Below, piece by piece: positions 1-42,814 of a DNA stretch of 64,000 nucleotides. This DNA is from Gemmatimonadales bacterium. Its GTDB lineage: Bacteria; Gemmatimonadota; Gemmatimonadetes; Gemmatimonadales; GWC2-71-9. Position 1 is the stretch's first letter; each line of letters begins with the position of its first letter. Both the position numbers and the translations under genes were made by a program. The DNA is taken from NCBI GenBank assembly GCA_036004745.1, contig DASYRD010000129.1:41687-105686 (forward strand). The letters are read 5' to 3'. The notes under the pieces were generated by a model, which searched no databases, was not told the origin of the DNA, and worked only from the letters and a program-made list of their open reading frames with translations.

Positions 1-2820
1 CTCGACGCCGGAGACGTGACAATCGGGATCGCCGTCCGTGCCGTCCACACAGTGCTCGAGTGCCTGGAGCAGGACCGATCCCTTGACCGACAGGCGCAGC
101 ATGCGGTTCTGGAACGGCTGTACCATCTGCACATCGCCCCACGTCACGGCGCCTTCGGGAAGTCCTGCCCGTATCCCGCCGTTGTTGACGATCCCGACGT
201 CGGCCTTGCCGATGTTGCGCGCCGCATCGGCGATGAGGCGCCCCAACCCGTACTCGGCGCCCTCGCGCTTGAGCGGGACCTTAAGGCGTGCCACCGACCG
301 GCCCGTGATGGCCTTGATCGCGTCGAGTTGCGCCGCCAGCGCGCCGGTCAACTCGGGATCGGGTCGCACCGCGTCGGCATACGGCGTCACGAGCTGCGCG
401 CGCACAGCCCGGCGCGTTCCGCCGACGCGCACGAAGTCCACCACGGCGATGTCGCGCCCGCTCGATCCCGGCTCCACGATCGGAATGCCGTTGATCACCG
501 TGTCGATGCGCTGGTGCGTGTGGCCCGCCACGATCAAGTCGACGGATCCCGAATCGAGGCCCCGCGCCACATCGTAGATCGCACCTGGACCCTCGTGCGC
601 GACCACGATCACGAAGTCCGCGGCGGCGCGCGCCTCGGGCAGGTAGCGGCGGACCGCCTGCGCGCCGTTACCGAAGGCGAGGCCGCGCACGTTGCGCGGC
701 GCGGTCGTCGTGGGTGTGCTGGTCGTCGTGAGACCGATGACCGCGATCTTGACCCCGGTCTTCGTCACGAGCGTCCAGGGCAACGCCCAGTCGGGACGCG
801 CCTTTCCTGCGGAGTCGGTGATGTTGGCGGAGACGAACTTGTAGTGGGCGTCCTGCATGCGCGCCCGCAGCGTGTCGATCGACCAGTCGAATTCGTGGTT
901 TCCGATGGCGGCCGCGTCGATCCCCAAGGCGTTCATCGCGGCGATGGTGCCGCGCCCGAAGCTGAGATTCGACACGGGCGTGCCCTGCATTTCGTCGCCG
1001 GCGTCGAGTCGAATCGTGGTGCAACGGCATACCCTTTCCAGGCTATCGAGCCACGGCTTGAGCACCGCGGTGCCTCCGACGGCTCTGCCGTTCGACCAGT
1101 CCCACACGCGTGATTCGAGCTGGCCGTGCAGGTCGGTCAGTCCGAGCACGCGCAGCAGCGTGTTATCCGCGGTGCTCGCCACGACCGGGGCTGTGGGCGC
1201 GAACAACGCCCGCACGGCCGCGCGCGCCGAGTCGGGGATGATGCCCCAACTGGGCCGTAAGTACACGCGGGGCTCGAGCCGGTGCACGCGCCGGATCTCC
1301 TCGACCAGGAGGTCCCGGATGTCTTCGCCGCGATCGTAGGTGACCCGCGCGTTCGCGAGCATCCCGTACCCGCCGCCCCCGGCCGCGCGGTAGCTGTTCA
1401 GGGCGAGCGTGAAACTATCGGTCGGCTGGACCAGCTTGCCTTCGTACGCGAGCCCGCGGACGCGCTGACCCGCCGGGCGGGAGAGATCGATGTTGTAGAC
1501 GACGCCGCTCACGACATCGAAGTTGAAGCCGGGGACCGTATCGTCGATGACGCGCCGCGGCGCGGCCGGATCGAACGTGCGGAAGTACAGCGCCGAATGC
1601 TCGAGGAACTCGCGCAGCTGCTGGCCCGAGATCTTCACCGCGCGCAGCGTGTTCTCGTACGGGTACACGCCGGCGACATCGCGCAGGAGCACGTCGCCGT
1701 CCGGGAAACCCGCCTGCACGTCGAACGCCGCGGCCGCCGAGAGCTGCGTCCCCGCCTTGCGGCGCTGCACTTCATTAATGAAGTCGAGGAGCGCGCCGTC
1801 CTGGACGCGGGAGTAGCGCGCGTCGAAGCCGGGGGCCGCCGTTCCCAGCGGCGTGGCGGCCCAGAGTCGGGCAGCCTCGTGGGCGGCGTCGACGCGCCGC
1901 GTGAGCCGCGTCAGCTCGGGCGTCGTCGTCCTCAGGGGGACGAGCTCGGCGCGCACGTCGACCACCTTCCCCTGCACCACAAAGACGTGGACGACCGACA
2001 GGCTCTGCGCCCAGTTCCGCGGCTGGACGAAGTGCACGCCGTTGATCACGGTGTCGCGGATCTCGCGGTGGCTGTGGCCGACGATCACGACATCGGGCTT
2101 GGGCGTGACGGACGCGAGGACTGCCGCATCGTTCTCGGGCCCGACGCCCGTCGTGTCGTAGCTCGAGCCGCCGCCCAGTCCGGCATGAATCAAGACGATT
2201 TTGACATTCGCGCCCTCGCGCTCGAGTCGCGCCAGCGCCGCGGGGGCCGCCTCGGCGACGCGCCGCACGCGCACCTGACCGGCGAGCTGGGCGCGGTCCC
2301 ACACCATCACGCCGGGAGTCGTGAAGCCCGTGATGCCGACGCGCAGGCCGGCGCGCGGCAACACCACCGTTGCGGGGAAAAGCGGCCCACCGGTCGCCTG
2401 ATCGACGTTGGCGGTGACGTAGTGATAGGTCGCCTCGACGCCGGCGCGGCGCAGCAGCGGCAGCCCGAAATCGAAATCGTGGTTCCCGGGCGTTGCCGCG
2501 TCGTACTGGAGCGCATTCAGCGCATCGACGATCGGGTGGGGCTGCCGCTGATCCTGTTTCCCGAAGAACGTCGCGAACGGGTTCCCCTGGAGCAGGTCTC
2601 CGGCGTCGACGAGCACCACGCGGCCCGGGTACTGCGTCCGCAGGGTCTCGAGAATCGTGCCGGCGCGCGTCAACCCGCCCTGCGTTTCGACGTCGCGGAC
2701 GTAGTCCCACCCACGCACGCGGCCGTGCACGTCGGTGGTGGCGACGATGACGAGGTGGGTGGTGTCGGTGGATGCGGAGGGAGCTTGCGCCGCGAGAATC
2801 AGCGCGAACAGAACATGCAT
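1..2820 (-). CDS. Two-unit (tandem-fused) metallophosphatase/5'-nucleotidase family protein, partial; the C-terminus lies beyond the window start
   Basis: I translated the minus strand from the ATG at 2820. It reads MHVLFALILAAQAPSASTDTTHLVIVATTDVHGRVRGWDY..VDAGDLLQGN..TPGNHDFDFG..VVIVGHSHRE, which is the first calcineurin-like unit. In the stretches I translated, the same frame stays open through ~1320-1080 (..RVYLRPSWGII..LLRVLGLTDLHGQLE) into a second unit (DAGDEMQGTPVSN, IGNHEFDW, LIVAGHTHQRID near 540-480) and reads through to position 1. Its absence from the ORF track fits an ORF with no stop inside the window. Confidence 0.8.
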   Translation of the reverse strand, partial: MHVLFALILAAQAPSASTDTTHLVIVATTDVHGRVRGWDYVRDVETQGGLTRAGTILETLRTQYPGRVVLVDAGDLLQGNPFATFFGKQDQRQPHPIVDALNALQYDAATPGNHDFDFGLPLLRRAGVEATYHYVTANVDQATGGPLFPATVVLPRAGLRVGITGFTTPGVMVWDRAQLAGQVRVRRVAEAAPAALARLEREGANVKIVLIHAGLGGGSSYDTTGVGPENDAAVLASVTPKPDVVIVGHSHREIRDTVINGVHFVQPRNWAQSLSVVHVFVVQGKVVDVRAELVPLRTTTPELTRLTRRVDAAHEAARLWAATPLGTAAPGFDARYSRVQDGALLDFINEVQRRKAGTQLSAAAAFDVQAGFPDGDVLLRDVAGVYPYENTLRAVKISGQQLREFLEHSALYFRTFDPAAPRRVIDDTVPGFNFDVVSGVVYNIDLSRPAGQRVRGLAYEGKLVQPTDSFTLALNSYRAAGGGGYGMLANARVTYDRGEDIRDLLVEEIRRVHRLEPRVYLRPSWGIIPDSARAAVRALFAPTAPVVASTADNTLLRVLGLTDLHGQLESRVWDWSNGRAVGGTAVLKPWLDSLERVCRCTTIRLDAGDEMQGTPVSNLSFGRGTIAAMNALGIDAAAIGNHEFDWSIDTLRARMQDAHYKFVSANITDSAGKARPDWALPWTLVTKTGVKIAVIGLTTTSTPTTTAPRNVRGLAFGNGAQAVRRYLPEARAAADFVIVVAHEGPGAIYDVARGLDSGSVDLIVAGHTHQRIDTVINGIPIVEPGSSGRDIAVVDFVRVGGTRRAVRAQLVTPYADAVRPDPELTGALAAQLDAIKAITGRSVARLKVPLKREGAEYGLGRLIADAARNIGKADVGIVNNGGIRAGLPEGAVTWGDVQMVQPFQNRMLRLSVKGSVLLQALEHCVDGTDGDPDCHVSGVE

Positions 2821-2865
2821 AGTGCGCCGTAATCTGATGAAGGCCTGCGGTTTGCGCCACAGCAC

Positions 2866-2881
2866 GTCACAATCAGGTAAC
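2866..2881 (-). promoter_or_regulatory. Candidate Pho-box-like operator GTTACC-N5-GTGAC (read on the minus strand) in the divergent nucleotidase/phoB intergenic region
   Basis: The minus strand reads GTTACCTGATTGTGAC, 46 nt upstream of the nucleotidase ATG. The same architecture, with 11-bp-phased GTNAC half sites, recurs at 5579-5594. The neighbouring TTACCATCCCG (2909-2919) matches TTACCATTCCG at 5580-5590. Confidence 0.4.
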
Positions 2882-2924
2882 GGCGCTGGCGAGCCATCCG
2901 TGACCGGATTACCATCCCGCCTGC

Positions 2925-3638
2925 ATGCCGACCACCCACCGCGTCTTGGTAGTGGATGACGAGCCCGACATCACCGCGCTCGTCGCCTACCATCTGGCGA
3001 AAGAGGGCTATCGCGTCACGACGGCGGCGAACGGCACCGAGGCGCTGCGCTCGGCGCGCGAAGAACGGCCCGACCTCGTCGTGCTCGACCTGATGCTGCC
3101 CGGACTGTCCGGCTACGACATCCTCTCCGAGCTGCGGCGCCGCGAGGAGACGCGAGAAGTCGGCGTCATCCTCCTCACCGCGCGCAAAGAGGAACCCGAT
3201 CGCATCAAGGGTCTCTCGCTCGGTGCCGACGATTATCTCTCCAAGCCGTTTTCACCCAAGGAGCTCGTGCTACGGGTCGCGGCGATCCTGCGTCGCCTGT
3301 CTGCGCCCGCGGTCGCGTCGGGGGGCCGGATCGCCGCGGGTCCGATCGCGCTCGACCGTGGGGCCCATCGCGTCACCGTCGGTGGCAAGGAGATTGAGCT
3401 CACCGCGACCGAGTTCCGGCTCCTCGACAAACTGATCGAGCGCCGTGACCGCGTGCTGAGCCGCACACACCTGCTCGAGTCGGTGTGGCAGGCGCAGCCC
3501 GACATCCAGACGCGTACCGTCGACATGCACGTGCAGCGTCTGCGCGCCAAGCTGGGCGACGCCGGCGAGTGGGTGGAGACGGTGCGCGGCGTGGGCTATC
3601 GCTTCCGCGAGCCGACGCATCGCCGCGGACGGGGATGA
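2925..3638 (+). CDS. phoB: OmpR/PhoB-family response regulator (receiver plus winged-helix domain)
   Basis: [39 protein letters not shown] is a receiver domain. The C-terminus [35 protein letters not shown] is an OmpR-type winged helix. The stop overlaps the phoR start (ATGA), and the gene sits next to the pst operon. Confidence 0.9.
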
Positions 3639-7856: not shown

Positions 7857-8870
7857 ATGACAACCCTCCCGATCGAGCCGGTCCCGGCCCCGCCGCCGAG
7901 TATCGAGACGCCGAGCGCCGACTCCCGGTGGTCGTCACTGCGTGGGGTCAACGCCAGCGACCGCATCTACAAGGGCGTCCTGACCGCGCTCGCGATGACC
8001 CTGCCCCTCCTGATCATCGCGCTGTTTGCCCAGCTCTTCTTCAGCGCCCTGCCGGCGATCAAGCGGTTCGGCTTCTCATTCTTGTGGACGTCGACGTGGG
8101 ATCCCGTCGCGGAAATCTACGGCGCGGCCCCGATGATCTTCGGGACGTTGGCGTCGTCGCTCATCGCGCTCCTCATCGCGGTGCCCCTCGCGCTCGGCGT
8201 CGCGATCTTCCTCACGGAGTTCGCGCCCCGCTGGATCAGACAACCGGTGGCGTTTCTAGTCGAGATGCTCGCCGCGATCCCCAGCGTCGTGTACGGACTG
8301 TGGGGCGTCTTCGTCCTGATTCCGTTCCTGCGCAACTACATCGTGCCGCCCCTCAAGGCCCTGCTCGGGTGGACGCCCTTCTTCCAGGGCGTGTTTTACG
8401 GCAACTCGCTCCTCGCGGGCGGGATCATTCTGGCCATCATGATCGTCCCCTACATCGCGGCCGTGTCGCGCGAAGTCTTGCTGGCAGTGCCGGCGAGCCA
8501 GCGCGAGGCGGCGCTGGGCATGGGCGCCACGCGGTGGGAGGCGGTGTGGACGGCGGTCCTCCCCTACGGCCGGGCCGGGCTGATCGGCGCGATCATCCTG
8601 GGCCTCGGCCGCGCGCTGGGCGAGACGATGGCCGTCACGATGGTGATCGGGAACCGGCACGACATCAGCCTCTCGGCCTTGCAGCCCGCGTACACGATGG
8701 CCGCGGCGATCGCGAACGAGTTCAGCGAAGCGACGACCTCGATGTACCAGTCGGCGCTCGCCGAAGTCGGCTTCATCCTGTTCGTGATTACGATTCTCGT
8801 GAACGCGTTCGCCCGCGTTCTGATCTGGCGCGTGGCGCGCGGTGCCGCCGTCGGGAGCAAGGCTCTATGA
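7857..8870 (+). CDS. pstC: Phosphate ABC transporter permease PstC
   Basis: FGFSFLWTSTWDPVAEIYGAAPMIFGTLASSLIAL..GRALGETMAV is the EAA-type permease motif. I chose the ATG at 7857; the track ORF starts at a GTG at 7815, which is an alternative. Confidence 0.88.
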   Translation: MTTLPIEPVPAPPPSIETPSADSRWSSLRGVNASDRIYKGVLTALAMTLPLLIIALFAQLFFSALPAIKRFGFSFLWTSTWDPVAEIYGAAPMIFGTLASSLIALLIAVPLALGVAIFLTEFAPRWIRQPVAFLVEMLAAIPSVVYGLWGVFVLIPFLRNYIVPPLKALLGWTPFFQGVFYGNSLLAGGIILAIMIVPYIAAVSREVLLAVPASQREAALGMGATRWEAVWTAVLPYGRAGLIGAIILGLGRALGETMAVTMVIGNRHDISLSALQPAYTMAAAIANEFSEATTSMYQSALAEVGFILFVITILVNAFARVLIWRVARGAAVGSKAL

Positions 8871-27789: not shown

Positions 27790-27871
27790 GCGACCGTGGC
27801 GGAACTGGCAGACGCGCCAGCCTTAGGAGCTGGTGGGGCAACCCGTGGGGGTTCGAGTCCCTCCGGTCGCA
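27790..27871 (+). tRNA. tRNA-Leu (anticodon UAG)
   Basis: I folded the cloverleaf by hand. Acceptor stem GCGACCG/CGGTCGC, anticodon stem CCAGC/GCTGG with loop CTTAGGA, long variable arm, T-arm GGGGG-TTCGAGT-CCCTC, discriminator A. CCA is not encoded. Confidence 0.9.
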
Positions 27872-27875
27872 CGTA

Positions 27876-29889: not shown

Positions 29890-31140
<1,251 letters not shown>

Positions 31141-31148
31141 CCGACTCG

Positions 31149-31715
31149 TTGTTCCGCGGCTCGTTCCCCCGGGCCGACGTTGTCCTCGATCCCCCGCTCC
31201 CCGAAGTCGCGTTCATCGGCCGCGCCAACGCCGGCAAATCGAGCCTGCTCAACGCCCTCGTCGGGCATAAGATCGCGAAGACATCCGGAACGCCCGGGAA
31301 GACCCGTGCGCTCAACGTCTTTCAAATGGAACAGATGTTCTTTCTCGACCTCCCGGGGTACGGATACTCCCGGGCAGCCAAATCCGATCGCACAGCCTTC
31401 CGGCGCCTCGTGAACCACACGTTGAACCGGACGCGTCTCGCGGGCGTCGTCTGGCTGCTGGACATCCGGCACGAGCCGTCGGAGGAGGATCTCAAGATGC
31501 AGGATCTCCTCGCCGAACACGAAACGCGCGCGCTTGCGGCCCTGACCAAGGCCGACAAGCTTCCGCGTGACCCTCGGCGGCAGCGCGAGCAGGAGCTGCG
31601 CGCGACGCTGGGCCTGCCGGAGGATCAAGTGATCGTGACGAGCGCGAAGACCGGCGAAGGCATCGCGGATCTGCGCGAGGCGATTGCAGAATTGATCGGA
31701 GCACCGAATGCGTAG
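31149..31715 (+). CDS. engB: Ribosome-biogenesis GTPase EngB/YsxC/YihA
   Basis: G1 motif GRANAGKSSLLN, with G2-G4 downstream (PGKTR, DLPGYG, TKADK). The start is uncertain. I list the TTG at 31149. An in-frame CTG at 31137 overlaps the clpX TGA. The track start at 31074 lies 66 nt inside clpX. Confidence 0.85.
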   Translation: MFRGSFPRADVVLDPPLPEVAFIGRANAGKSSLLNALVGHKIAKTSGTPGKTRALNVFQMEQMFFLDLPGYGYSRAAKSDRTAFRRLVNHTLNRTRLAGVVWLLDIRHEPSEEDLKMQDLLAEHETRALAALTKADKLPRDPRRQREQELRATLGLPEDQVIVTSAKTGEGIADLREAIAELIGAPNA

Positions 31716-32301
31716 CAGTGCATTACTGCTGGTGGCAATGCTCGCGGCTCCGTTGGCGGCGCAGGACACCGTGCCTCCGGGCTTCGGCACCCTGAAGCGC
31801 GACGACATCGTCGTGCGGTTCGCCACCGGCAACCTCGAGATCCAATGCCTGCCGCTCGACGAGCAGGTGATTCGCCTGCTCGCCACCGATACGTACAAGT
31901 CGCTCACGCAGCTCATACAGAGCCGGCAGGACGACATCACCGCGGCCGCTGACCGCGCGGGCGTGGTGAAACCCACGCTCGTCTTGGTGACGTTTTTTGG
32001 ATTGGTGTCGCAGGCCCGCTTCAACCCGGAAGACCTGAACATCTCGAGCCGAGGGCGGCTGTTCAGGCCTGCCGGCATCGTGCCCCTGTCGCCAACGTGG
32101 GGGTCCTACCAGCTCGACGCCCGGCAACAGGCCGTCGCGATCTATCTCTTTGAAGACGGGATCACCTTCCGGGAGAGCATGTCGGTGAGCTACCAGGGGC
32201 TCACCAACGAGTCCTGGGGCCGCGCCCTGCGCCTGCTCGATCAGGAGCGATCGAGGGTGCGGGCGCGGGCCCAGGCCTCGCCGCCTACCGGTTCGCCCTG
32301 A
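31708..32301 (+). CDS. Hypothetical secreted protein (signal peptide, no recognised domain)
   Basis: MRSSALLLVAMLAAPLAAQD is a signal peptide. The ATG overlaps the engB stop (ATGCGTAG). Amino-acid composition is normal. Confidence 0.6.
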   Translation: MRSSALLLVAMLAAPLAAQDTVPPGFGTLKRDDIVVRFATGNLEIQCLPLDEQVIRLLATDTYKSLTQLIQSRQDDITAAADRAGVVKPTLVLVTFFGLVSQARFNPEDLNISSRGRLFRPAGIVPLSPTWGSYQLDARQQAVAIYLFEDGITFRESMSVSYQGLTNESWGRALRLLDQERSRVRARAQASPPTGSP

Positions 32302-33841
32302 GCAGCTCCGGCGACACCTTCGTCGCCGCGACGACCGGAGGCGTGTTGCGCTGACCACGCGGAATCATCCCGGTCAGATTCGCCAGCTCGAACGCCGACA
32401 CCGCCATCACCGTCGACGCCTGCCGCAGATCCCAGTCGATCGACTTGTCCCACGTGTCCGACTGGGAGTGGTGCGTGTGGTTGTAGCCACGGGTGATCTG
32501 ATTGAAGTTGAACCCGGGCACCCCGTAGGGCAGGAATGACAGGTGATCGGTACCGCCCTTGAAAGCGTCGTTCACCGTGTCGGCATTGAGCGAGCGGACC
32601 GGGAGCAGAATCGCGCGCCACAGGCCGTACAGCTCCGGCCGGCCCTGTAGCGCCTGCCCCGTCACGGCCCCCGCCCCGTTGTCGAGCACGATCACCGCCT
32701 GAATCGAGTCGGCCTCGCCGCCGTGCTGCTCGGCGTACTTGCGCGACCCGATGAGCCCCTGCTCTTCACCAGTGAAGAGAATGAAGCGGATCGTGCGCTT
32801 CGGCTTGAGGCCGGACTGCGCGATGATGCGCGCCGCCTCGAGCGTGGCCATCGAGCCCGTCGCGTTGTCGGTCGTGCCGGTGCCCAGATCCCAGGAATCG
32901 AGGTGCGCGCCGACGATCACGACCTGCCCCGGATGCTCTGTCCCGCGGATCTCGGCGACGGTGTTCCACTGCGGGACCGAGTCTTTCATGTTGAGCGTGT
33001 TCTGAATGCTCGCCTGCAGCTGCGGCGTGACCCCCAGGCCGATCAGGCGATCGAACATGGCGTATTCCTCATGCGCCACGACCACCTGCGGGAGCGGCAG
33101 CACGCGGTTTGGTGACCCGCTCATGTTGAGGAGGTCCTGCTCTTTGCCGGCGTCGAGCAGAATGCCCAGGGCCCCGGCGTTGCGCAGCAAGAACGGCTGA
33201 TCGTTGTTGAACTGCTGCTGCCGCGCCCGCGCTGCGGAGTCGCGCACGGGGGCCTGCTGGAACCCGGCGAACGCCGCGCGCTGGCGCTGCGAGTCGGCGG
33301 CGGTCATCGGCGGGCCGTCGTTATTGAACACGTTCGCCGGCCCCCGCAGCATTACCCACGCGCCTTTGATCTTCGCGCGATACGCGTCGAGGCTCTCGGG
33401 CGCGCTGGCATCGATGCGGACCACCGGGCCCGTCACCGGCTTGCCACCCGTGCCGGGCGCCCACGCCCAGCTCGCCGCGACCACTTCGTGCGAGCGCGGC
33501 GCCACCATGCGCATCCACATCGGGCCCCGCTCCCACGACCCGCCGAAGTTCCACTGCTCGAGGCGCGCCTCGAGGCCGTAGCTCTGGAACTGCTTCATCG
33601 TCCAATCGTTCGCGGCGCGAACGGCGGGCGACCCCGTCAGCCGCGGGCCGATCACGTCGGCGATGTACTGCAGGTTCTTCATGACCTGGGACTTGTTCAT
33701 CCCCTGATCGATGAGGGCGCCGACACCGGCCGTGTCCACGGTGACCCCGGGGACGCCGGTGCCGCGTTGCTGTCCGCCACCCCCGCCCTGGGCGGCGAGA
33801 GGTGAGGCGAGGAGCATGGCGGCGCAGAGGAAACGGTTCAC
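32285..33841 (-). CDS. M28-family aminopeptidase with a PA domain
   Basis: VIVGAHLDSWDLGTGTTDNATG..ILFTGEEQGLIGS..HHSQSD carries the M28 zinc ligands. The start is set at GTG 33841, which is preceded by AGGAG 9 nt upstream and gives the signal peptide VNRFLCAAMLLASPLAAQ. Confidence 0.85.
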   Translation of the reverse strand: MNRFLCAAMLLASPLAAQGGGGGQQRGTGVPGVTVDTAGVGALIDQGMNKSQVMKNLQYIADVIGPRLTGSPAVRAANDWTMKQFQSYGLEARLEQWNFGGSWERGPMWMRMVAPRSHEVVAASWAWAPGTGGKPVTGPVVRIDASAPESLDAYRAKIKGAWVMLRGPANVFNNDGPPMTAADSQRQRAAFAGFQQAPVRDSAARARQQQFNNDQPFLLRNAGALGILLDAGKEQDLLNMSGSPNRVLPLPQVVVAHEEYAMFDRLIGLGVTPQLQASIQNTLNMKDSVPQWNTVAEIRGTEHPGQVVIVGAHLDSWDLGTGTTDNATGSMATLEAARIIAQSGLKPKRTIRFILFTGEEQGLIGSRKYAEQHGGEADSIQAVIVLDNGAGAVTGQALQGRPELYGLWRAILLPVRSLNADTVNDAFKGGTDHLSFLPYGVPGFNFNQITRGYNHTHHSQSDTWDKSIDWDLRQASTVMAVSAFELANLTGMIPRGQRNTPPVVAATKVSPELLRANR

Positions 33842-33913
33842 GGTAGGCAACTCCTGTTTGATGAATACGGTATTGTGGGGACCCCTTAGGGTACGCGCGA
33901 TCGCGGGCATCCG

Positions 33914-34564
33914 TTAGGGCTTGGCGACGAACACCCGGCCTTCCAAGTCCGGCGTCCAGCGAACCCGAACCGAATCCGCACACACGACGCTCGCCGCAAG
34001 CGTCAACGCGCGCTCGCAGCCAAGCCCCAAGAGGGCCGTGGACCAGGCCTCGGCCACGAGGGCGGAGGGCGCGAGGACCGTCACGGACACTTTCTTGTCG
34101 GCGTCGGTCGTGGTGCTCACCGATCCGGAACGCATGTCCACGGTCGCCCAGGTCTCGAGGGAATTCGCGGGATCGGGGATCCCGACGGGGCGGCGCGTCT
34201 CCCGCGTCCCGACCCACATGAACTGCGACCCAAGGTTGAGGAGCGCGCTGTCGACCACTCCAGTGAGGATCCGGGCCGCGCGATCGAGGGCGTCGCCGTC
34301 GATCACGTCGTCCGTCGCGACGGTCACCCCGGTGCGCCGACGGATTTCACGGCGCAATGAATCGAGCGGGACCACATGGCCGGGCCGGTCGAGCGTGTCA
34401 CGCACGACACCCAGAGCCCCGGCGATGCGCGTCGTGTCAGCGCCCCAGGCGGCAGCCGACATCGTGGTGCCAACGGCAGGAAAGGCCCGGGAGACGGGCG
34501 GCGGCGGCGGCGCAGCCCCGCAGGCGGCGATGCCAATAAGGAGGACGACGCAGCGCGTTTTCAG
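33914..34564 (-). CDS. Truncated ApbE-like lipoprotein (degenerate paralog)
   Basis: ApbE-like C-terminal blocks: GDALDRAARIL, ALLNLGSQFMWVG, VGIPDP, VSVTVLAPSALVAEAWSTALLGLG. The only start giving the lipoprotein signal (M)KTRCVVLLIGIAAC is a CTG at 34564 that overlaps the apbE TGA. The longer track ORF upstream is an out-of-frame overlap with apbE. Confidence 0.65.
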   Translation of the reverse strand: MKTRCVVLLIGIAACGAAPPPPPVSRAFPAVGTTMSAAAWGADTTRIAGALGVVRDTLDRPGHVVPLDSLRREIRRRTGVTVATDDVIDGDALDRAARILTGVVDSALLNLGSQFMWVGTRETRRPVGIPDPANSLETWATVDMRSGSVSTTTDADKKVSVTVLAPSALVAEAWSTALLGLGCERALTLAASVVCADSVRVRWTPDLEGRVFVAKP

Positions 34565-35445
34565 ACGGCGTAGGCCCGCAGCACGGCGTCTGGGCGCCGC
34601 CCGGAGACCAGCATCGCGGTGGAGAGCGCGTCGGCTGTGGTGGCGTCCGCCGTGACGACCGATGCCTGGCGCAGCGCATCGGCGGGCCGGCCCGTGGCGG
34701 GATTCAGGACGTGCAGGCGCGCCGTGTTGCCGGACGTCGCGAGCGCGGCGTCGCGCAGCCGTGTCGCCGCGATGGTCCCGCCCTCGCGCGCCGGATCTGC
34801 GATCTCCACGAGCCAACCCTGTTCTCCGGGCGGCGCGCCGATGGCGGCGCAGTCGCCGCTCACGTCGATGAAGGCCCTGGTGATGCCGCGCGCCCGGAGC
34901 ACGGCAAACGCCCGGTCGATCCCGTAACCGACGCCGATGCCGCCGAAGTCGAGCTGCGTGTGCGCGTTGGGCAGGCGCGCCGTGGCGCCCTCGAGCCGTA
35001 CTTCCGCCGTCGCCACCGCCTCCCGCGCTTCTGCGAGCTCGGCGGCAGTCGGGGACCCCTGACGCGTCGCGTCGAACCCCCAAGCCCGCATCAGGGGCTC
35101 GACCGCCACATCGAATGCCCCAGCAGTCAGCCGCCGGAAGTCAGCGGCGCACGCGAGGATCACCCGCAGGTCCTCATCGACGTGGATCGGGCCGCGCCCT
35201 GCATGGCGATTCAGCTCGCACAGGTCGCTGGCGTCCTCGAACGAGGAAAGACGGCTCTCGACGCGCCGCAGCTCCGCCAGCGCTGCCGCGCATGCGTCGA
35301 GCCCCTGCTGCTCCGAGCCGGCAAAGACCATGACGTGCACCGACTGTCCCATCGCCCACGACCAGCGCTCGACGAACTGCTCGCGTCGGGTCCAGGCCGG
35401 AGCGAGTCCGGCGGCGAGGAAGCCTACGAAATCACGGCGCCGCAC
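34561..35445 (-). CDS. apbE: FAD:protein FMN transferase ApbE with a Tat signal
   Basis: Tat motif MRRRDFVGFLAAGLAPAW. ApbE blocks AGAFDVAVEPLMRAWGF, FGGIGVGYGIDRA, TSGN..VLNPATGRP and ADATTADALSTAMLV. Confidence 0.88.
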   Translation of the reverse strand: MRRRDFVGFLAAGLAPAWTRREQFVERWSWAMGQSVHVMVFAGSEQQGLDACAAALAELRRVESRLSSFEDASDLCELNRHAGRGPIHVDEDLRVILACAADFRRLTAGAFDVAVEPLMRAWGFDATRQGSPTAAELAEAREAVATAEVRLEGATARLPNAHTQLDFGGIGVGYGIDRAFAVLRARGITRAFIDVSGDCAAIGAPPGEQGWLVEIADPAREGGTIAATRLRDAALATSGNTARLHVLNPATGRPADALRQASVVTADATTADALSTAMLVSGRRPDAVLRAYAV

Positions 35446-35923
35446 GCTCGACTCGGTGGAGGTCGCGGAGAATGAGATAGGAGTTCACGTAGAACGTCAC
35501 CGCCAGGAGCAGACTCGACGCCTCGAGTAACCAGCTGAACCCCGGGGCGACGTATCGCATCAGCCACATCGCCGAGAAAGAGACGAGCAGCGCGCAGAAC
35601 GGCTCGGCGATGAGGATTCGCTTCCAGCGCTCGGAGATGGAGGCGCACAGCGCCACACCCACGCCGGTGATCACGAAGATCACGGCCATACTCAACAGGT
35701 GGGTGTGGGTGATGTTGAGCATCTCGGCGAGCGACTTGGGGAACTGCATGGCCCCTTCGGTGACGTCGGGGTTGGCGCCGCGATAGCGCGCCGCGACGCC
35801 GGGGGGCACGAGCCGCGTCGTGTGCCACACGAATACGAGCGACGTGGTGTACCCGACGAGCTGCACGATCGTGACCCACCGTCCCAGAGTGCGAAACGGC
35901 GCGGGCACGTCCTTCCAGGTCAT
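35432..35923 (-). CDS. Hypothetical 4-TM membrane protein with conserved-looking His residues (H34, H73/H75)
   Basis: Four clear TM helices. The TM1-TM2 loop reads ..RYRGANPDVTEGAMQFPKSLAEMLNITHTHLL. ATGA overlap with the upstream FMN-binding gene and a 14-nt overlap with apbE. Confidence 0.7.
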   Translation of the reverse strand: MTWKDVPAPFRTLGRWVTIVQLVGYTTSLVFVWHTTRLVPPGVAARYRGANPDVTEGAMQFPKSLAEMLNITHTHLLSMAVIFVITGVGVALCASISERWKRILIAEPFCALLVSFSAMWLMRYVAPGFSWLLEASSLLLAVTFYVNSYLILRDLHRVERAAP

Positions 35924-36357
35924 CGAATCGCCCCAGTCTGGTGCCAGTGGGTCAGATCGGCGAGTGCGCGCTTTACCCCCAGCGTCACCGCATGGACACT
36001 GATCGTGGCGCCGGAGATAACACGGATTTCGCGGCCCACGCGGAGCGAGTCCGCAATGCTCTTTCCCCGAAATTGCCGTCGCCAGGCTTCGTACACCACC
36101 TCGCCTCCGTACGGCTCACGATAGACGAGCACATCCACATCCTTGAGCCGGTCGGCGGGATCGACCGCGACGAGAAAGGTGATCGGCTGATCCTTCCCGA
36201 TCACGTTGCGCACCGCGGCGAATCCGAGGAGGGAGTCGCCACGGGCGACGCGCAGCACCGTGTCCGCCGCCACGGTGAGCGGGCTGGCCTCGGCGCCAGG
36301 ACCGAAGATGCGGCGCACCGCAGCGGCGACTTTGGCGGAGGGCGCGCCCTGCATCAT
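35920..36357 (-). CDS. FMN-binding (FMN_bind-like) domain protein carrying an ApbE flavinylation motif
   Basis: ..GKDQPITFLVAVD..VLVYREPYGGEV..WRRQFRGKS..EIRVISGATISVHAVT contains [S/T]GA[S/T], with Thr as the usual FMN attachment site. The start is at the ATGATG 2 nt after the OMP stop. The 59 upstream codons of the track ORF are Arg-rich overlap with the OMP gene. Confidence 0.7.
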   Translation of the reverse strand: MMQGAPSAKVAAAVRRIFGPGAEASPLTVAADTVLRVARGDSLLGFAAVRNVIGKDQPITFLVAVDPADRLKDVDVLVYREPYGGEVVYEAWRRQFRGKSIADSLRVGREIRVISGATISVHAVTLGVKRALADLTHWHQTGAIR

Positions 36358-36358
36358 G

Positions 36359-37480
36359 TCAGAACTGGTAGCCCACGCCGAGACGCAGGGTCTCACCCTG
36401 CCCCGTGCCCGCCGCCGTGCGCAGCACCGTGTAGTCTCCCTTGAACGCCGTGTTCCACGTCGGTTTGAACGTGAGGCCGAGGGTGGTGACTCGCCGCGCG
36501 AATCCGCGGTCGCGCGTCGTGCCCGCCGGAACATCAGCCTGGGTGTCGTAACGCTCGTGACGCACGAAGGCGCTCAGGTGTGACACGAATTCGTACGCAC
36601 CCTCGAGGTAGCCGCCGGCGATGCGGCTGCCGACCGCCGAGCCGTAGAGGGCGTTGATCGTGTCGGCGTCGGCGACGCTCACCGTGGCCACCACGGCGCG
36701 CAGAGCCAGCGGCCCGCGCTGGTAGCGCGCGTCGGCAGAGAGCACGGCGATCGGTGCATCGACGCTCCCCCTGCCGAGCAACGTATCACCGCCGGTCGTG
36801 CCCCCGTACCAGAAGGAGCCGCCCACGCGCAGGCCTCCCGCCGGTCGCGCCCACTCGATCCGCCCGGTGAGCGAGGGGTTGGCAAACGACGCCTCCCGGC
36901 CTTCCTGGCGACCCTCGCGAATCCCCTCGGCGTCGGAGAAGCCGTCGGCTCGGAGTCCGTTCACGAGATAGAGCCGGTAGTTCCACCCGTCGGCCACGGG
37001 CAAGCGCCCCAGGATACCCACGCCGATTTCGCGCCATGTCGTCGGGATGACATCGTGGTCGAACGCAGGTCGGTCCACACTATTGAAGGTGGGAGGCTCG
37101 TGAGTCTCGTTGATGATGCCGACGGGGATGAGGACGAGCCCCGTGCGGAGCGTGAAGCGATCGGAGAAACGGTAGTCGAGGAATGCCTGCTCCAAGGCGA
37201 CCTCGCCCCCAGCGCCAGGTGGTTCGACCTTGGCGTCCTCGATCTCCAGCTCCGATCGAAACGTCACGCGATCATTGAAGGTGTGCGCCAGATAGACCAC
37301 GAAGCGCCTCAGGTTCACCTCGGCCGGCGTGTTCGGACCACGCGGATTGGTGTAATGGACCTCCCCGTATCCGCCGATGGTGGTGGACTCCCTGGTCTCA
37401 TTCGCCTGTTGGGCGTCAGCGGGACCAGCCACGGCGAGGACAACGCTAGCCAGGGCCAGACATTCGACGACTCTCGACAT
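36359..37480 (-). CDS. Porin-like outer-membrane beta-barrel protein
   Basis: The start at ATG 37480 (GGAG upstream) gives the signal peptide MSRVVECLALASVVLAVAGPADAQ. The sequence has amphipathic beta-strand periodicity, starts GGYGEVHY, and ends ..LRLGVGYQF (terminal Phe). Confidence 0.78.
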   Translation of the reverse strand: MSRVVECLALASVVLAVAGPADAQQANETRESTTIGGYGEVHYTNPRGPNTPAEVNLRRFVVYLAHTFNDRVTFRSELEIEDAKVEPPGAGGEVALEQAFLDYRFSDRFTLRTGLVLIPVGIINETHEPPTFNSVDRPAFDHDVIPTTWREIGVGILGRLPVADGWNYRLYLVNGLRADGFSDAEGIREGRQEGREASFANPSLTGRIEWARPAGGLRVGGSFWYGGTTGGDTLLGRGSVDAPIAVLSADARYQRGPLALRAVVATVSVADADTINALYGSAVGSRIAGGYLEGAYEFVSHLSAFVRHERYDTQADVPAGTTRDRGFARRVTTLGLTFKPTWNTAFKGDYTVLRTAAGTGQGETLRLGVGYQF

Positions 37481-37508
37481 CAGGGGGACGCTCCTGAAGT
37501 GCTTAAGT

Positions 37509-37527
37509 GAGAATGAGTTGAGAATGA
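37509..37527. promoter_or_regulatory. Direct repeat GAGAATGA-N3-GAGAATGA (11-bp phasing) in the divergent OMP / hybrid-kinase promoter region
   Basis: Read directly: GAGAATGA at 37509-37516 and 37520-37527, within a locally AT-rich stretch of the 116-nt intergenic region. Confidence 0.4.
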
Positions 37528-37596
37528 TGATTATCAACTGGGATACGCGAATCTATTTGTCGGGTATCTGCCGGTCAAGCGCCGGCTCCTTAACTT

Positions 37597-39726
37597 GTGG
37601 CGACCGTGGATTTCCTCCTCCAGCACCCAATCCTGTCTGCGGCCGTCGGCGTCGTCACCCTCACGCTCGCGGCGGCGCTGTGGCGTCTGTGGGTGCGCCT
37701 GGTGCGATCGGAGCGCGAGCGGCGCAAGGCCGCCGAAGAGTTGAATCGCCGCCTCTCGGAGTTGTTCTCCCTCCAAGAGCTGTCGTACGTCCTCTCCGAT
37801 TCGCTGGAGCTCGACCGAATCGTGGAGCAGGTGGTGCGCTACGCCGTGCGCTTCCTCGACGCCCAGGGCGCGCTGCTGGCACTCGCGGGCGAGCCCCCGA
37901 TCGACGTGCTACGTGTCGCCGCGAGCGAAGGAACCCTCGCGCACCTCCGTGGCCGAACGATTCCCGCCGACGACCCGGGGCTCGTCGCCCGTTCGATCAG
38001 TCGCGAGCATTTGGAACTGGTCCGGAACTCGGGCGGCGAGCCGATGCGCATCGTGAAGGACGTGGAGGCGGCGGCCGCGGCCGCGGTACCGCTGCGCGCC
38101 CACGGCGTCGTCATCGGCACGCTTGTGATCGCCGACCCGCGCGAGGGCGTCTTCGTCTCCGACGACCTGCGCCTCCTCTCCACGCTCGCGACGCACGCCG
38201 CGGTCGTCATCGCCAACGCGCGATTCTTCGAGATGGTGCGCCGGGCCAAGGAGCAGTGGGAGACGGCCTTCGACGCGCTGAGCGAGGGCATCGCCGTCGT
38301 GGATGTCGACGGGAAAGTCCGCCGCGCGAATCGCGCCCTCGCCGCGCTGCTCGGCGCCCCGCTCCCGGCGGTGATCGGCACCCATCTCTGCGAAGCGCTG
38401 CTCGGTAAGTCGCACGCATTGATGGAGTTGCTGGACGCCGCCCGGCGCGGCGAGCACCCCCCCGCCCTCGTGGCCCGCTCGGAGCGCCTGGGCAGCACGA
38501 TGCGCGTGAACGCGGCCCGTATCCCGACCGCGACCGAGGACCAGAGCGTCGTCGTGCTCGTCGAGGACGTCACCGATCAGCAAGTCATGGAGACGCAGCT
38601 CATTCAGAGCGAGAAGCTGGCCGCCGTCGGACAGCTCGTCTCCGGCGTGGCGCACGAGCTGAACAACCCGCTCACGTCGATCGCGGGCCTCTCGGAATTC
38701 CTGCTCGAGCAGAAAGAGATTTCGAAAAAGGACCGCGGCCACCTCAAAGTGATCCACGAGCAGGCGGAGCGGGCCGGCCGCATCGTGCGCAACCTCCTGA
38801 CCTTCGCGCGCAAGGAGCCGGCGGAGCGCTCCCCCGTGGACCTGAACGACGTGGTCCAGCGGACCTTGCAGCTGATGGAGTACGATCTGAAGATCGCAGA
38901 CGTCGACGTCCAGCGTGACTTGCGGGCCGCACTCCCCCACGTCGTCGGCGACCGCCACAGCTTGCAGCAAGTGGTGCTGAACCTGCTCACGAACGCGGCC
39001 CAGGCGGTGGCGGAGAACCGGCCCGGCCAGCCGCGCGCGATCACGGTCTCGACGTGGTCCGACGACCTGGTGCATTTGCGCGTCGCGGACACCGGTCCCG
39101 GAATCAACGACGTCGTGGCGCAGAACGTGTTCACACCGTTCTTCACGACCAAGGAGCCCGGCAAAGGGACGGGCCTCGGCCTCTCGATCACCTACACCAT
39201 CGTCGAGAACCACGGCGGCCGGATCACTCTGGAGCGGCCCACGAGCGGCGGCGCGGCATTCCGCGTGGATTTGCCTCCCGTCCCTGCCGACGCGAGTGCC
39301 CCGGCGCCGCGAATTCGACCGCCAGCCCCCCCGACGCTCGGCCACGCCAAGCGCACGGTGCTCCTGGTGGACGAAGACCTGGCGGTGCGGCGGATGGTCA
39401 AGGCGTTGTTCGGACGAGATGGACACGAGGTGGAGATCGCGCACAATGCGCAGCACGCGCTGGAGCTCGCGCAAGGCGGGGGGTTCGACCTCATCATCGT
39501 GGATGCGCGCGCCGCGATGCGCGGTGGCGGCAAGCTGTTCGTGGAGGAGTTGGTGGCGCGACTACCGGCGTTGCGGGATCGGACGATCGTGGCGACGGGA
39601 GACGTCGGGGTGGCGACGGAGGAAACGTTGACGCGGCTCGGCCTGCGCTACGTGCGCAAGCCTTTCAACCTCCGCGACCTGCGGGACGAAGCCGCGCGTT
39701 TGTGGGCCGCGACGGCGGTGTCGTAA
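37597..39726 (+). CDS. Hybrid sensor histidine kinase (TM-GAF-PAS-HisKA-HATPase-receiver)
   Basis: GTG start. GAF-like region [28 protein letters not shown] region [18 protein letters not shown]-box [14 protein letters not shown] boxes [16 protein letters not shown] and GTGLGLSI. C-terminal receiver [18 protein letters not shown]. Confidence 0.9.
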
Positions 39727-40520: not shown

Positions 40521-42776
40521 CTAACGGCGGCGCCCGAGCACCGCTTCGAGGCGCGCCGACAGGGCGCGCGCGCGGAACGGCTTGGTGAGGAAATCGTCGG
40601 CGCCGAGCTCGAACACGCGGACTTCGTTGTCCTCGTCGCCCTTCGCCGTGAGGACGATGACGGGAATCGAGGCGGTGGCGGGACGCGACCGCAAATGCGA
40701 CAAGACGCCGTACCCGTCGAGCCCGGGCAGATTCAGGTCGAGCACGATGATGTCGGGCCCGACGCGGTCTACCTGATCGAGCGCCTGCACGCCGTCGCGC
40801 GCCTCCGTGACGAGGTATCCATCCCGCTCGAGCAGATCCTTCATCACTTTGCGGAGGCTGTCCTCGTCGTCCACCAGCAGCACCTTGCAGGCCGGCTGCC
40901 CATGGGCGCCGGAGCTGCGGGCTTTCTTGTCCGCGACCTCCTCCAGCAAGTCGAAATGCGTCGAGACCGGCTCCGGCGGCACGGTGACGGTGCCCGGCGC
41001 CGGGGTGAGGCGCAACGCGTCGGCGGTGCTGGAGCGGCGTCCCCCGCCCGGCGCAGACGCAGCCGCGGGCGCGCCGGGGCCATCGTCCTCTACGGGCACA
41101 TCCACCACCCGCATCAGCTCGTCGATCGTCGACTCGCCGCGCGTCACGTGCGCGAGCCCCGAATCCCACAACCCCTTCATCCCCGCAATCCGCGCCGCCT
41201 CGGCGATACGGGACGCCGGCTCGCCCGCGGCAATGCGGCGCTCGACCTCGGGCGACACCGTCAGCACTTCGATGATGGAGAACCGGCCGCGGTATCCCGT
41301 CATCGCGCAGTCGGGGCATCCCGCCGCGCGATACATCGGCGTGCCCTTCGCGATCCATTTCCGGAGCTTCTCGGGGGGCGCCTCCATCCACACTTCTTTG
41401 CAGGTGGGACAGAGCTTCCGCATCAGCCGCTGGGCGATCACGCCGCGCAGGGCCGCCGCGATCTTGTACGCTTCGACGCCGATATCGACGAGTCGTGTGA
41501 CCGCGTTGGCGGCGTCGTTCGTATGCAGCGTCGAGAGTACGAGGTGGCCCGTGAGGGACGCCTGGACGGCGATCTGCGCCGTCTCCTTGTCGCGGATTTC
41601 GCCGACGAGGATGACGTTCGGGTCCTGACGCAGGATCGAGCGCAGCGCTGAGCCGAAGGTCAGTCCCGCTTTCTCCTGGACCTGCACCTGGACGATGCCC
41701 TGCATCCGATATTCCACCGGGTCTTCGACCGTCACGATGTTCACGCCTTCGGTCTGGATCTGGCGGATCATCGAGTAGAGCGTGGTCGTCTTGCCGGACC
41801 CCGTGGGGCCCGTCACGAGGATCACGCCTTCCTTGTTCTGCAGGAGCTGCGTGATCGCCTCGGTCTCGCCCGGGTTGAAGCCCAGCGACTCGAGCGACTT
41901 GACGGTGGCCCGGGAGTCGAGGATGCGGATGACGACCTTCTCGCCCTGCGCCGCGGGGAGCGTCGACACGCGGAGGTCGATCGGCTGGCCGTTCACCGCC
42001 ACGCGGGCGCGGCCGTCCTGTGGCCGCATCCGGTCGGCGATGTCGAGCGACGACATGATCTTGATGCGCGAGATGAGCGGCAACCCGGCATTGCGCGGGA
42101 TCTTCATGACCTGGCGCAACACACCGTCAATGCGGTAGCGGACCGCCACACCCCCTTCTTCGGGCTCGATGTGGATGTCGCTCGAGCGGGAAAGAATGCC
42201 CTCGGAGATGATCAGATCGACGAGCCGCACCACGGGGCGCTGGCTGGCTTCTTCCTCGGAGATGTTCAACTCTTCCGGAGGGGCATCTTTGAGCGTCGTC
42301 ATCACCTCGGCATCGCCCATGCCCTCGAGCAGCTTGTCGAGCGCCTTCTCGGGGCGGTACATCTCGTCCAGCTTCTCCGAGATCTTCGACGGCGCCAGCA
42401 GCAGCATCCGAATCTCCCGCGCCGTGGCGAAAGCCAACGCCTTCTCCGCGTCCAGATCGAACGGGTTCGCGGTGGCGAGCTCGAGGAACGAATCGGTCAG
42501 GCGGATCGGCAGGATACGATAGCGGCGCGCGAGCTGCTCGGGGACGCCTTCCTTCACGTTGGCGTCGATGTGGGCGACATCGGCGATCTTGAGACGGAAC
42601 CGCGTGGAGAGCTTCCCGAGGATCTGCTCGTCGGTCGCCACTTTCTGCGCGACGAGCATTTCCCACATCGTGCGGCCCGCCTCCGCCTTCGTCCGGAGGT
42701 CGGCCAGGAGCTCGGGCGTGACGAGGCCCTCCAAGGACTGGGCTAGCCACTCGTCTGGGAACGCGGTTACAGGCAT
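40521..42776 (-). CDS. GspE/PilB-family secretion ATPase (T2SSE_N domain, ATPase core, tetracysteine) fused to a C-terminal response-regulator receiver domain
   Basis: Walker A GPTGSGKTTT, Walker B ILVGEIRD, His box GHLVLSTLHTNDA, and the Cys motifs CPTC..CPDC. After an Ala/Pro-rich linker comes KVLLVDDEDSLRKVM..IIVLDLNLPGLDG..LTAKGDE..FLTKPF, a receiver domain. The start is taken at ATG 42776; the track uses TTG 42788. Confidence 0.88.
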   Translation of the reverse strand: MPVTAFPDEWLAQSLEGLVTPELLADLRTKAEAGRTMWEMLVAQKVATDEQILGKLSTRFRLKIADVAHIDANVKEGVPEQLARRYRILPIRLTDSFLELATANPFDLDAEKALAFATAREIRMLLLAPSKISEKLDEMYRPEKALDKLLEGMGDAEVMTTLKDAPPEELNISEEEASQRPVVRLVDLIISEGILSRSSDIHIEPEEGGVAVRYRIDGVLRQVMKIPRNAGLPLISRIKIMSSLDIADRMRPQDGRARVAVNGQPIDLRVSTLPAAQGEKVVIRILDSRATVKSLESLGFNPGETEAITQLLQNKEGVILVTGPTGSGKTTTLYSMIRQIQTEGVNIVTVEDPVEYRMQGIVQVQVQEKAGLTFGSALRSILRQDPNVILVGEIRDKETAQIAVQASLTGHLVLSTLHTNDAANAVTRLVDIGVEAYKIAAALRGVIAQRLMRKLCPTCKEVWMEAPPEKLRKWIAKGTPMYRAAGCPDCAMTGYRGRFSIIEVLTVSPEVERRIAAGEPASRIAEAARIAGMKGLWDSGLAHVTRGESTIDELMRVVDVPVEDDGPGAPAAASAPGGGRRSSTADALRLTPAPGTVTVPPEPVSTHFDLLEEVADKKARSSGAHGQPACKVLLVDDEDSLRKVMKDLLERDGYLVTEARDGVQALDQVDRVGPDIIVLDLNLPGLDGYGVLSHLRSRPATASIPVIVLTAKGDEDNEVRVFELGADDFLTKPFRARALSARLEAVLGRRR

Positions 42777-42814
42777 GTGGTTGGTCAAACCTAACGTCCG
42801 AGTCCAGTATACGC

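Follow-up and report, generated by a model that had tools for sequence, protein, structure and literature searches.

The window analysed here is a stretch of 64,000 nucleotides (nt) from a Gemmatimonadales bacterium (GenBank assembly GCA_036004745.1, contig DASYRD010000129.1, positions 41,687 to 105,686 of the forward strand). It contains five adjacent minus-strand genes encoding a porin-like outer membrane protein (OMP), an FMN_bind flavoprotein (FMN, flavin mononucleotide), a small inner-membrane protein with four transmembrane (TM) helices, the flavin transferase ApbE, and a truncated ApbE-like lipoprotein (hereafter half-ApbE). All five open reading frames (ORFs) described in the original prediction, which had been made from the letters of the window alone, were confirmed on the minus strand with unchanged coordinates. 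Their description as genes coupled by overlaps held for three junctions (overlaps of ATGA, 14 nt, and CTGA, in operon order) and failed for the first one, where 1 nt lies between the OMP gene and the FMN_bind gene. The features of the operon and its direct neighbors are the following (window coordinates, strand):

37550–37578, minus: putative sigma-70-like promoter upstream of the OMP gene (TTGACC, 17 nt, TAGATT); weak, from a consensus scan only, 9 of 12 positions
37517–37538, no strand assigned: Fur-box-like palindrome GTTGATAATCATCATTCTCAAC (minus-strand reading) in the OMP promoter region
36359–37480, minus: OMP/porin, 373 amino acids (aa), first gene of the operon, modeled as 16-strand OmpF/OmpC type (signal peptide, beta-signal, Foldseek)
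37034–37120, minus: invariant porin loop GIINETHEPPTFNSVDRPAFDHDVIPTTW, residues 121–149, at the L3 position (61-sequence alignment and model)
35920–36357, minus: FMN_bind protein, 145 aa, predicted ApbE substrate (PF04205)
36004–36015, minus: SGAT flavinylation motif, S115 to T118, with T118 as the predicted FMN-phosphoester site
35432–35923, minus: Aq_1264_TM (PF27139) inner-membrane protein with four TM helices, 163 aa (family assignment of homologues, AlphaFold2 (AF2) model)
35699–35707, minus: invariant H73-T-H75 motif in the second TM helix, TM2 (50 diverse family members)
34561–35445, minus: ApbE, FAD:protein FMN transferase, 294 aa, twin-arginine N-terminus (PF02424)
33914–34564, minus: truncated ApbE-like lipoprotein, 216 aa if translated from a CTG start at 34564 (partial ApbE profile match)
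32285–33910, minus: M28 peptidase (Pfam), 3 nt downstream of half-ApbE
37597–39726, plus: divergent GAF-PAS-HisKA-HATPase-receiver hybrid kinase (domain matches)

Selection on the five genes was assessed against a relative of the window (L001), whose first three proteins are 86–88% identical to those of the window. The ratios of nonsynonymous to synonymous substitution rates (dN/dS) were 0.08–0.27 for all five genes, at dS values of approximately 0.7–1.1, indicating that all five are real genes under selection.

The assignment of the 145-aa protein to the FMN_bind family was borne out by its match to PF04205, with 36.5 bits against a cut-off of 22 (E = 7.8e-9; model positions 1–76 of 77), and its gene had a dN/dS of 0.086. 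The threonine of the SGAT motif had been expected to be conserved, and was: 85 of 92 homologues contained the [ST]G[AS][ST] motif, and of the remainder six retained the threonine and one (L124) ends before the motif position, such that the acceptor threonine is kept in every complete homologue. Like the N-terminal FMN_bind domains of RnfG, NqrC, and NosR, the protein combines PF04205 with the flavinylation motif, and its best NCBIfam matches were RnfG models. However, it scored far below the cut-offs of the RnfG and NosR families (33 bits vs. 102 and 18.6 vs. 1000, respectively), and, unlike those membrane-anchored subunits, it is soluble, stands alone, and has no other Rnf, Nqr, or Nos subunits beside it. 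The absence of the usual respiratory partners was likewise upheld, as no Nqr, Rnf, Nos, or fumarate reductase was found in the window or in 118 related loci.

The FMN_bind proteins of the window and of L001 have neither a signal peptide nor a hydrophobic leader; they start with MMQGAPSAKV, which corresponds to the mature end of their homologues. Sec signal peptides that end in ...AAQ(S)APPxK are present in the homologues elsewhere, those of other Gemmatimonadota included. A comparison of the N-terminus (window 36270–36357) with those of L066, L091, L129, and L130 indicated that the Sec signal was lost in the window and L001. Neither a signal peptide nor an anchor that would place this predicted ApbE substrate outside the cytosol was found in the window flavoprotein.

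The ApbE protein matched PF02424 as a full-length member (203 bits; model positions 1–248 of 266). Its N-terminus, VRRRDFVGFLAAGLAPAW, is twin-arginine-like (RRRDF), and Gemmatimonadota orthologues carry RRxF(L/V) twin-arginine signals. It is predicted to be exported by the twin-arginine translocation (Tat) pathway, as a related ApbE has been (PMC8238504), and presumably flavinylates the co-encoded FMN_bind protein. Possibly, the signal-less flavoprotein is co-exported with this Tat-type ApbE.

In half-ApbE, only the C-terminal half of PF02424 was matched (positions 118–257; 41.8 bits; E = 1.2e-10), and judged by this match it is not a full member of the ApbE family. No ATG, GTG, or TTG codon occurs at 34564 or before the lipoprotein signal, and the first ATG lies downstream of the lipobox (LLIGIAAC; LLLAAAC in L001). 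Because a conserved lipobox lies upstream of the first ATG, translation probably starts at the CTG codon at 34564, which overlaps the ApbE stop codon (CTGA). The lipoprotein signal pattern RRLKTRCxVLL..AAC (window 34462–34564) was also observed in L001. Half-ApbE had the highest dN/dS of the five genes (0.27) and was found only in the window and L001 when these were compared with L129 and L130.

The porin has an N-terminal Sec signal peptide (MSRVVECLALASVVLAVAGPADA/QQ) and a C-terminal beta-signal (...GVGYQF). Its sole Pfam match was to Porin_O_P (PF07396), aligned residues 53–125 only, and remained below the threshold (16.4 bits vs. 20.9); membership in the phosphate-selective porin O/P family was rejected on this score. 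The AF2 model, which was built from a shallow Gemmatimonadota alignment and hence is of moderate confidence (mean predicted local distance difference test score (pLDDT) of 71), is a beta-barrel. Foldseek matched it to OmpC, OmpF, Omp-Pst2, and OmpU (E = 2e-15 to 1e-11, probability 1.00), with TMq values of 0.52–0.64 for nearly all of the top 50 matches (TM approximately 0.6). The protein models as a general porin of the 16-strand OmpF/OmpC fold, and shares with OmpF, OmpC, and OmpU the long loop at the L3 position, the signal peptide, and the C-terminal aromatic beta-signal. Its identity to these porins is only 10–17%, however, and all Pfam porin models scored below threshold. The family further differs from general porins in that its gene is tied to the FMN_bind gene and that it has its own invariant NExHEPPxF...R loop, in which N124, E125, H127, E128, P129, P130, F132, and R137 were identical in 61 porins from many phyla. 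In the AF2 model this loop, of low pLDDT, sits between strands 109–117 and 150–159 and occupies the position of the constriction loop L3 of classical porins. The porin sequence contains no [ST]G[AS][ST] motif; given also the lack of a PF12094 match, it was rejected as a flavinylated outer-membrane protein of the DUF3570 type.

The four-TM protein was assigned to Aq_1264_TM (PF27139), as all 120 of the homologues listed (75–95% identity) have a precomputed PF27139 assignment; distant members retrieved with phmmer (22–25% identity) have the same assignment. The family is small, with 295 clusters (50% identity, E ≤ 0.001) among 1.84 billion representatives. The original prediction had drawn attention to histidines at the periplasm-facing ends of TM1 and TM2. 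In an alignment of 50 diverse members only G49, H73, and H75 were invariant, and the TM1 histidine, H34, was variable, which leaves only the TM2 histidines as conserved; the pair E107-P108 in TM3 was 82% conserved. The AF2 model (pLDDT 94.9) consists of four TM helices and a short periplasmic helix in the first loop. The charge distribution across the family predicts an N-in/C-in topology with the acidic first loop in the periplasm, and the HxH motif lies in the first third of TM2 (helix 65–91), nearer the periplasmic side. A search of PDB sequences with the family profile gave no match, and Foldseek retrieved only generic four-helix bundles such as MAPEG (E ≥ 0.9), which were uninformative. 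A transmembrane di-haem cytochrome b of the DUF4405/MsrQ/cytochrome b561 type was considered and rejected, as the four TM histidines and any matching Pfam family were lacking.

Two metagenomic proteins of 531–535 aa (P0209 and P0262) proved to be natural fusions in which Aq_1264_TM is followed by a fifth hydrophobic segment and then by a complete ApbE domain; in P0262 the fifth segment carries a lipobox. These fusions tie the family to flavinylation, and they agree with the N-in/C-in topology because ApbE ends up outside. In two Aquificota loci (L018, 6772–7719; L058, 4520–5440), the Aq_1264_TM protein is internally duplicated, giving proteins of 306–315 aa with eight TM helices, H-x-D in the first half, and H-x-H in the second half. 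Since HxH on a helix puts the two histidines on opposite faces, a bis-histidine site would need a dimer; the duplicated proteins fit a dimeric unit and a metal site equally well, and any cofactor is a putative one. The same two Aquificota loci contain an extra gene (513–547 aa, no Pfam match) between the porin and FMN_bind genes.

Porin orthologues were sought in a species-level genome collection with a degenerate DNA pattern for NExHEPPTF. At least 120 sites were found, and among the matches listed 118 of 120 were true porin orthologues according to the OMP profile. The porin unit occurs in at least 118 genomes of about nine phyla, namely in Gamma-, Alpha-, and Betaproteobacteria, Acidobacteriota (including Geothrix), Bacteroidota, Ignavibacteria, Aquificota, KSB1, Verrucomicrobia, Desulfobacterales, and Gemmatimonadota; the Fe-cycling genera Geothrix and Sideroxydans are among its carriers. 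The FMN_bind gene directly followed the porin gene on the same strand in 79 of the 89 loci with room downstream (approximately 89%), and 33 loci encoded ApbE within their 8 kb, either before or after the module. Among the matches listed, the third gene could be scored in 72 loci: it encoded a PepSY_TM protein in 39, Aq_1264_TM in 18, a four-His protein with four TM helices (cytochrome b561/DUF4405-like) in 7, and another protein or none in 8. The conserved unit is therefore a porin and a flavoprotein, joined by an inner-membrane protein from any one of three unrelated families; ApbE may be present or absent. Synteny, which had been proposed as a check, was retained across phyla, and we consider this architecture and the equivalence of the three third-gene families to be well supported.

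Pairwise profile comparison with hhalign detected no homology between Aq_1264_TM and the PepSY_TM proteins of the sister loci (probability 0.7%) or the four-His family (probability 0.5%). Distant members of Aq_1264_TM (22–25% identity) are found in the same setting: locus L003 has the order porin, FMN_bind, Aq_1264_TM, ApbE, and locus L008 has an OMP homologue, found with the OMP profile and without Pfam match, followed by FMN_bind and Aq_1264_TM. The slot is filled by the four-His family in loci L025, L045, L053, L097, L104, L110, and L118; these are small proteins with four TM helices and four invariant histidines, of which one scored as cytochrome b561 and one as DUF4405 in a Pfam scan. Pfam counts for 142 upstream and 110 downstream neighbors revealed no further conserved partner, redox enzyme, or Fe(II) permease.

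An association with iron was suggested by the promoter region and by neighboring genes. With GATAATGATAATCATTATC as the Fur consensus, the best match in the 64 kb was GTTGATAATCATCATTCTCAAC at 37517–37538 (14 of 19 positions on both strands), located between the promoter-like site and the OMP start codon. The other Fur-like matches, at window positions 8780 and 55064, fall within long ORFs and were put down to chance. Across the related loci, matches of at least 13 of 19 positions to this consensus, which is that of E. coli, is AT-rich, and has its matches inflated by intergenic composition, were present between −250 and +150 of 51% of 108 OMP starts vs. 21% of 396 other gene starts in the same loci (Fisher p = 4e-9) and 12% of random windows. 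Many loci reached 15–16 of the 19 positions at the OMP start. The element TTGAnAAtCATTCTCA recurs in high-GC Gemmatimonadota loci, where its spacing to the OMP gene is constant, and the box has the Fur 7-1-7 form TGAnAAT-n-ATTnTCA.

In L129, a 78%-identical relative, a gene for a TonB-dependent receptor (1053–3371) is placed between the kinase and the porin genes, on the strand of the porin, as part of its operon, and downstream of a Fur-like box (GCTGTTGAAAATCATTCTC). In L004 (259–3005), a DtxR-type repressor gene (Fe_dep_repr_C and FeoA domains) leads an operon continuing with FMN_bind and Aq_1264_TM, without porin, and the ExbB and ExbD genes are its convergent neighbors. A P19 iron-transport gene adjoins the module in L002, and FeoB and imelysin are occasional neighbors. 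Together, these Fur-like boxes and neighbors support, rather than prove, an iron-responsive control, and they point to iron where the original prediction had named no substrate.

Our preferred interpretation, to which we assign a probability of roughly 55%, is that the five genes form an iron-starvation operon with a Fur-type box, and that their products make up a self-contained, flavin-based system for metal reduction in the periplasm. The 16-strand OmpF-like porin, with its invariant acidic/His loop of the L3 type, would admit small iron species into the periplasm, and the co-encoded Tat-type ApbE would covalently flavinylate the FMN_bind protein on Thr118 of SGAT. Aq_1264_TM, oriented N-in/C-in and with HxH in the periplasmic third of TM2, would pass electrons from the membrane or the cytoplasm to the flavin, in the role that PepSY_TM or four-His cytochrome b proteins would have in the sister operons. 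The reduced flavoprotein would then reduce Fe(III) to Fe(II), which would be taken up by an unlinked inner-membrane transporter. The analysis shows the gene content, the motifs, the synteny across phyla, the exchangeable third gene, the modeled porin fold, and the enrichment of Fur-like boxes; we infer from these the flavinylation, the course of the electrons, any cofactor of Aq_1264_TM, and the identity of the substrate as iron. For Aq_1264_TM, the argument is drawn from gene position and not from homology: because it occupies the same gene slot, it would have the same job as the PepSY_TM and four-His proteins, and the transfer of membrane or cytoplasmic electrons to the periplasmic flavoprotein is its most likely function. 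The earlier picture of a redox module of the envelope that is centered on ApbE and includes a small membrane protein and an outer-membrane barrel of its own is retained, now as flavinylation-linked reductive metal uptake, probably for iron, with a new membrane-partner family and a dedicated porin.

A bolder and more tentative proposal is that Aq_1264_TM constitutes an unrecognised class of inner-membrane redox proteins that replaces PepSY_TM, with haem or quinone possibly bound via HxH at a dimer interface. Together with the NExHEPPxF porin it would form a widespread, Fur-controlled route of reductive iron uptake in at least nine phyla, in which the flavoprotein of the window lineage would ride on the Tat-exported ApbE. 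We regard this combined scenario as possible and, as a whole, rather doubtful.

The module is not entirely without precedent: PepSY_TM is the third gene in most other phyla, so that PepSY-like systems of flavinylation described earlier (Meheust et al. 2021, PMC8238504) are close to it, as are PepSY_TM metal reductases such as FoxB, VciB, and CrpH (PMC13038864). PepSY_TM proteins are haem-containing inner-membrane reductases of periplasmic ferrisiderophores or of copper, the latter probably being the case for CrpH (PMC8238504, PMC13038864). Common to these systems and the module are ApbE, a periplasmic protein that is flavinylated (in the module, by prediction), and a small inner-membrane partner, which is PepSY_TM in the 39 sister loci; an association with iron (Fur), as in these systems, is a putative one for the module; the window also has ApbE and its predicted flavinylation substrate in one cluster. 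The window differs in that its partner, Aq_1264_TM, has neither homology to PepSY_TM nor its histidine pattern, and no window protein matched PepSY_TM (PF03929/PF16357). Moreover, the flavinylated protein is predicted to be an FMN_bind protein instead of the usual DUF2271, and the window operon is led by an OmpF-like porin.

Resemblance was also found to the cytochromes of the DUF4405/MsrQ/FezC kind (Huang et al. 2024, PMC11334425), which are likewise small helical inner-membrane proteins co-localised with apbE and a flavinylated protein. TM proteins with four histidines, of the DUF4405/MsrQ kind, are regarded as flavinylation-associated cytochromes; binding of haem b was proposed for DUF4405/MsrQ/FezC-type proteins and shown for DUF4405 and FezC (PMC11334425). 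A four-His TM protein of this general kind takes the place of Aq_1264_TM in 7 sister loci. The difference is that the published proteins have four central histidines, whereas Aq_1264_TM has four helices with HxH only and no sequence match to them.

The membrane partners listed in the flavinylation surveys are NapH-like, MsrQ-like, PepSY-like, DsbD, Nqr/Rnf-like, and DUF4405 proteins (PMC8238504, PMC11334425), and the main texts of both surveys mention neither porins nor Gemmatimonadota. A full-text literature search retrieved no description of the module or of the Aq_1264/PF27139 family. Supplementary file 1 of PMC8238504 does contain an Emcibacter_A cluster (NVVY01000001.1_100-104) composed of ApbE, a porin, FMN_bind, and a K09939 protein, with its FMN_bind protein binned as 'OrganohalideReductase'. 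Such clusters are present in published data and were not recognised as a system.

Several observations weigh against the interpretation as a periplasmic iron reductase system. The window flavoprotein has no signal peptide, which leaves its access to a periplasmic ApbE unexplained. Aq_1264_TM has no homology to PepSY_TM or the four-His family and no structural relative in the PDB, and its two invariant histidines, on one helix in the periplasmic third of TM2, differ from the four-His di-haem pattern. No inner-membrane Fe(II) transporter was conserved beside the module in the Pfam counts on 252 flanking genes. As regards regulation, the AT-rich E. coli consensus inflates the matches and the control gene starts still reach 21%, some loci, e.g., L130, have no Fur-like box, and other Fur-family regulators (Zur, PerR, Mur) bind similar sites.

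The last point leads to the alternative that the same architecture serves another metal or oxidant, such as Cu(II), to be reduced for the assembly of cuproenzymes, Mn, or oxidised compounds in the periplasm, with a regulator of the PerR, Zur, or Mur type. Reduction of Cu(II) for cuproenzyme assembly has been proposed for the PepSY_TM protein CrpH, and PepSY_TM proteins are not limited to iron (PMC13038864); the boxes of the Fur family are alike, and the invariant His/Glu loop of the porin would suit several cations. Yet the neighbors of the module are of the iron type (TonB-dependent receptor, DtxR/FeoA repressor, ExbBD, P19, FeoB, and imelysin), the box has the 7-1-7 form of Fur, and copper chaperone or oxidase-assembly genes did not recur beside the module in the Pfam counts of flanking genes, such that we consider this alternative improbable. 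We judge it about equally improbable that Aq_1264_TM is an inner-membrane metal permease or receiver for Fe(II), with HxH and Glu107 lining an ion path and electrons reaching the flavin by another route. The conservation pattern could be read in this way, since H73 and H75 are the only invariant histidines and the membrane-embedded E107-P108 of TM3 is 82% conserved, and the three His and one Asp in total of the eight-TM Aquificota proteins resemble a metal site; a permease would also match the lack of a conserved Fe(II) transporter nearby. However, the slot is otherwise held by PepSY_TM or four-His cytochrome-b-like redox proteins and not by permeases, the side chains of HxH on an alpha-helix point to opposite faces, the flavoprotein would be left without a co-encoded electron source, and the direct fusions with ApbE suggest a role in the flavin branch.

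The original prediction favored a trans-envelope redox or electron-shuttling system. In a conduit of this kind, the porin would sheathe or dock the flavoprotein as in porin-cytochrome complexes, and electrons would be delivered to extracellular acceptors. The FMN_bind gene does follow the OMP gene directly in approximately 89% of the loci with room, Fe-cycling bacteria (Geothrix, Sideroxydans) are among the carriers, and the flavinylated outer-membrane DUF3570 proteins are a precedent (PMC8238504). Nevertheless, the flavoprotein offers only one FMN site, no [ST]GA[ST] motif occurs in the OMP, and control of the Fur type suits assimilation rather than respiration. MtrB-type sheaths have 26 strands, and the 16-strand OmpF-like barrel of our model is far smaller; a porin-cytochrome conduit of the MtrAB kind was rejected on the basis of this model and of the single-FMN partner. 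Because a 16-strand barrel cannot house a folded 15-kDa flavoprotein and the porin has no flavinylation motif, we favor a role of the modeled porin as an entry channel over one in an electron conduit, and we consider a conduit or extracellular electron shuttling very unlikely. There is a similarly slim chance that the module is decaying or has been re-purposed in the window lineage, with a cytoplasmic, unflavinylated flavoprotein and half-ApbE as a gene remnant. This would be in line with the signal peptide, which was lost in the window and L001 and is retained by 78–81%-identical relatives and other Gemmatimonadota, and with half-ApbE, where the N-terminal part of the domain is missing and dN/dS exceeds that of the other four genes. 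It is at odds with the low dN/dS (0.086) and the retained SGAT motif of the FMN_bind protein, with the purifying selection on all five genes at dS of approximately 1, and with the conserved lipobox of half-ApbE.

Outside the operon, the M28 peptidase gene is possibly a co-transcribed, lineage-specific passenger, being present in L001 and absent from L129 and L130. The divergent hybrid kinase had been put forward as a candidate regulator; it adjoins the operon in L001, L129, L130, and 5–6 Gemmatimonadota loci, but not outside the phylum, and nothing other than this adjacency links it to the operon; the regulator assignment was therefore not adopted. Near the kinase, the minus strand encodes a type II/IV secretion ATPase with a C-terminal response-regulator receiver domain (40521–42788), for which the MshEN and T2SSE domains were read from the L001 orthologue; this neighborhood is kept in L001 and L130. 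The flanks at 29890–31715 and 27790–27872 contain the housekeeping genes clpX, an EngB-like GTPase gene, and tRNA-Leu. In an Rfam search over the whole window, only tRNA reached the threshold and no riboswitch, including the FMN riboswitch, was detected.

Electron transfer in the cell envelope based on flavinylation is a recently recognised theme. If the interpretation as a reductive iron uptake system is true, Aq_1264_TM would be a further family of membrane partners, unrelated in sequence to the others, and three unrelated membrane proteins would be interchangeable within one conserved operon frame, with a dedicated porin, not discussed in the published surveys, as a fixed component. The loss of the signal peptide in the window lineage would provide a natural experiment on the way in which substrates of ApbE get to the periplasm. 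For the organisms concerned, the module would represent an unstudied route of iron acquisition in marine Gammaproteobacteria, Fe-cycling bacteria, Aquificota, and soil Gemmatimonadota.

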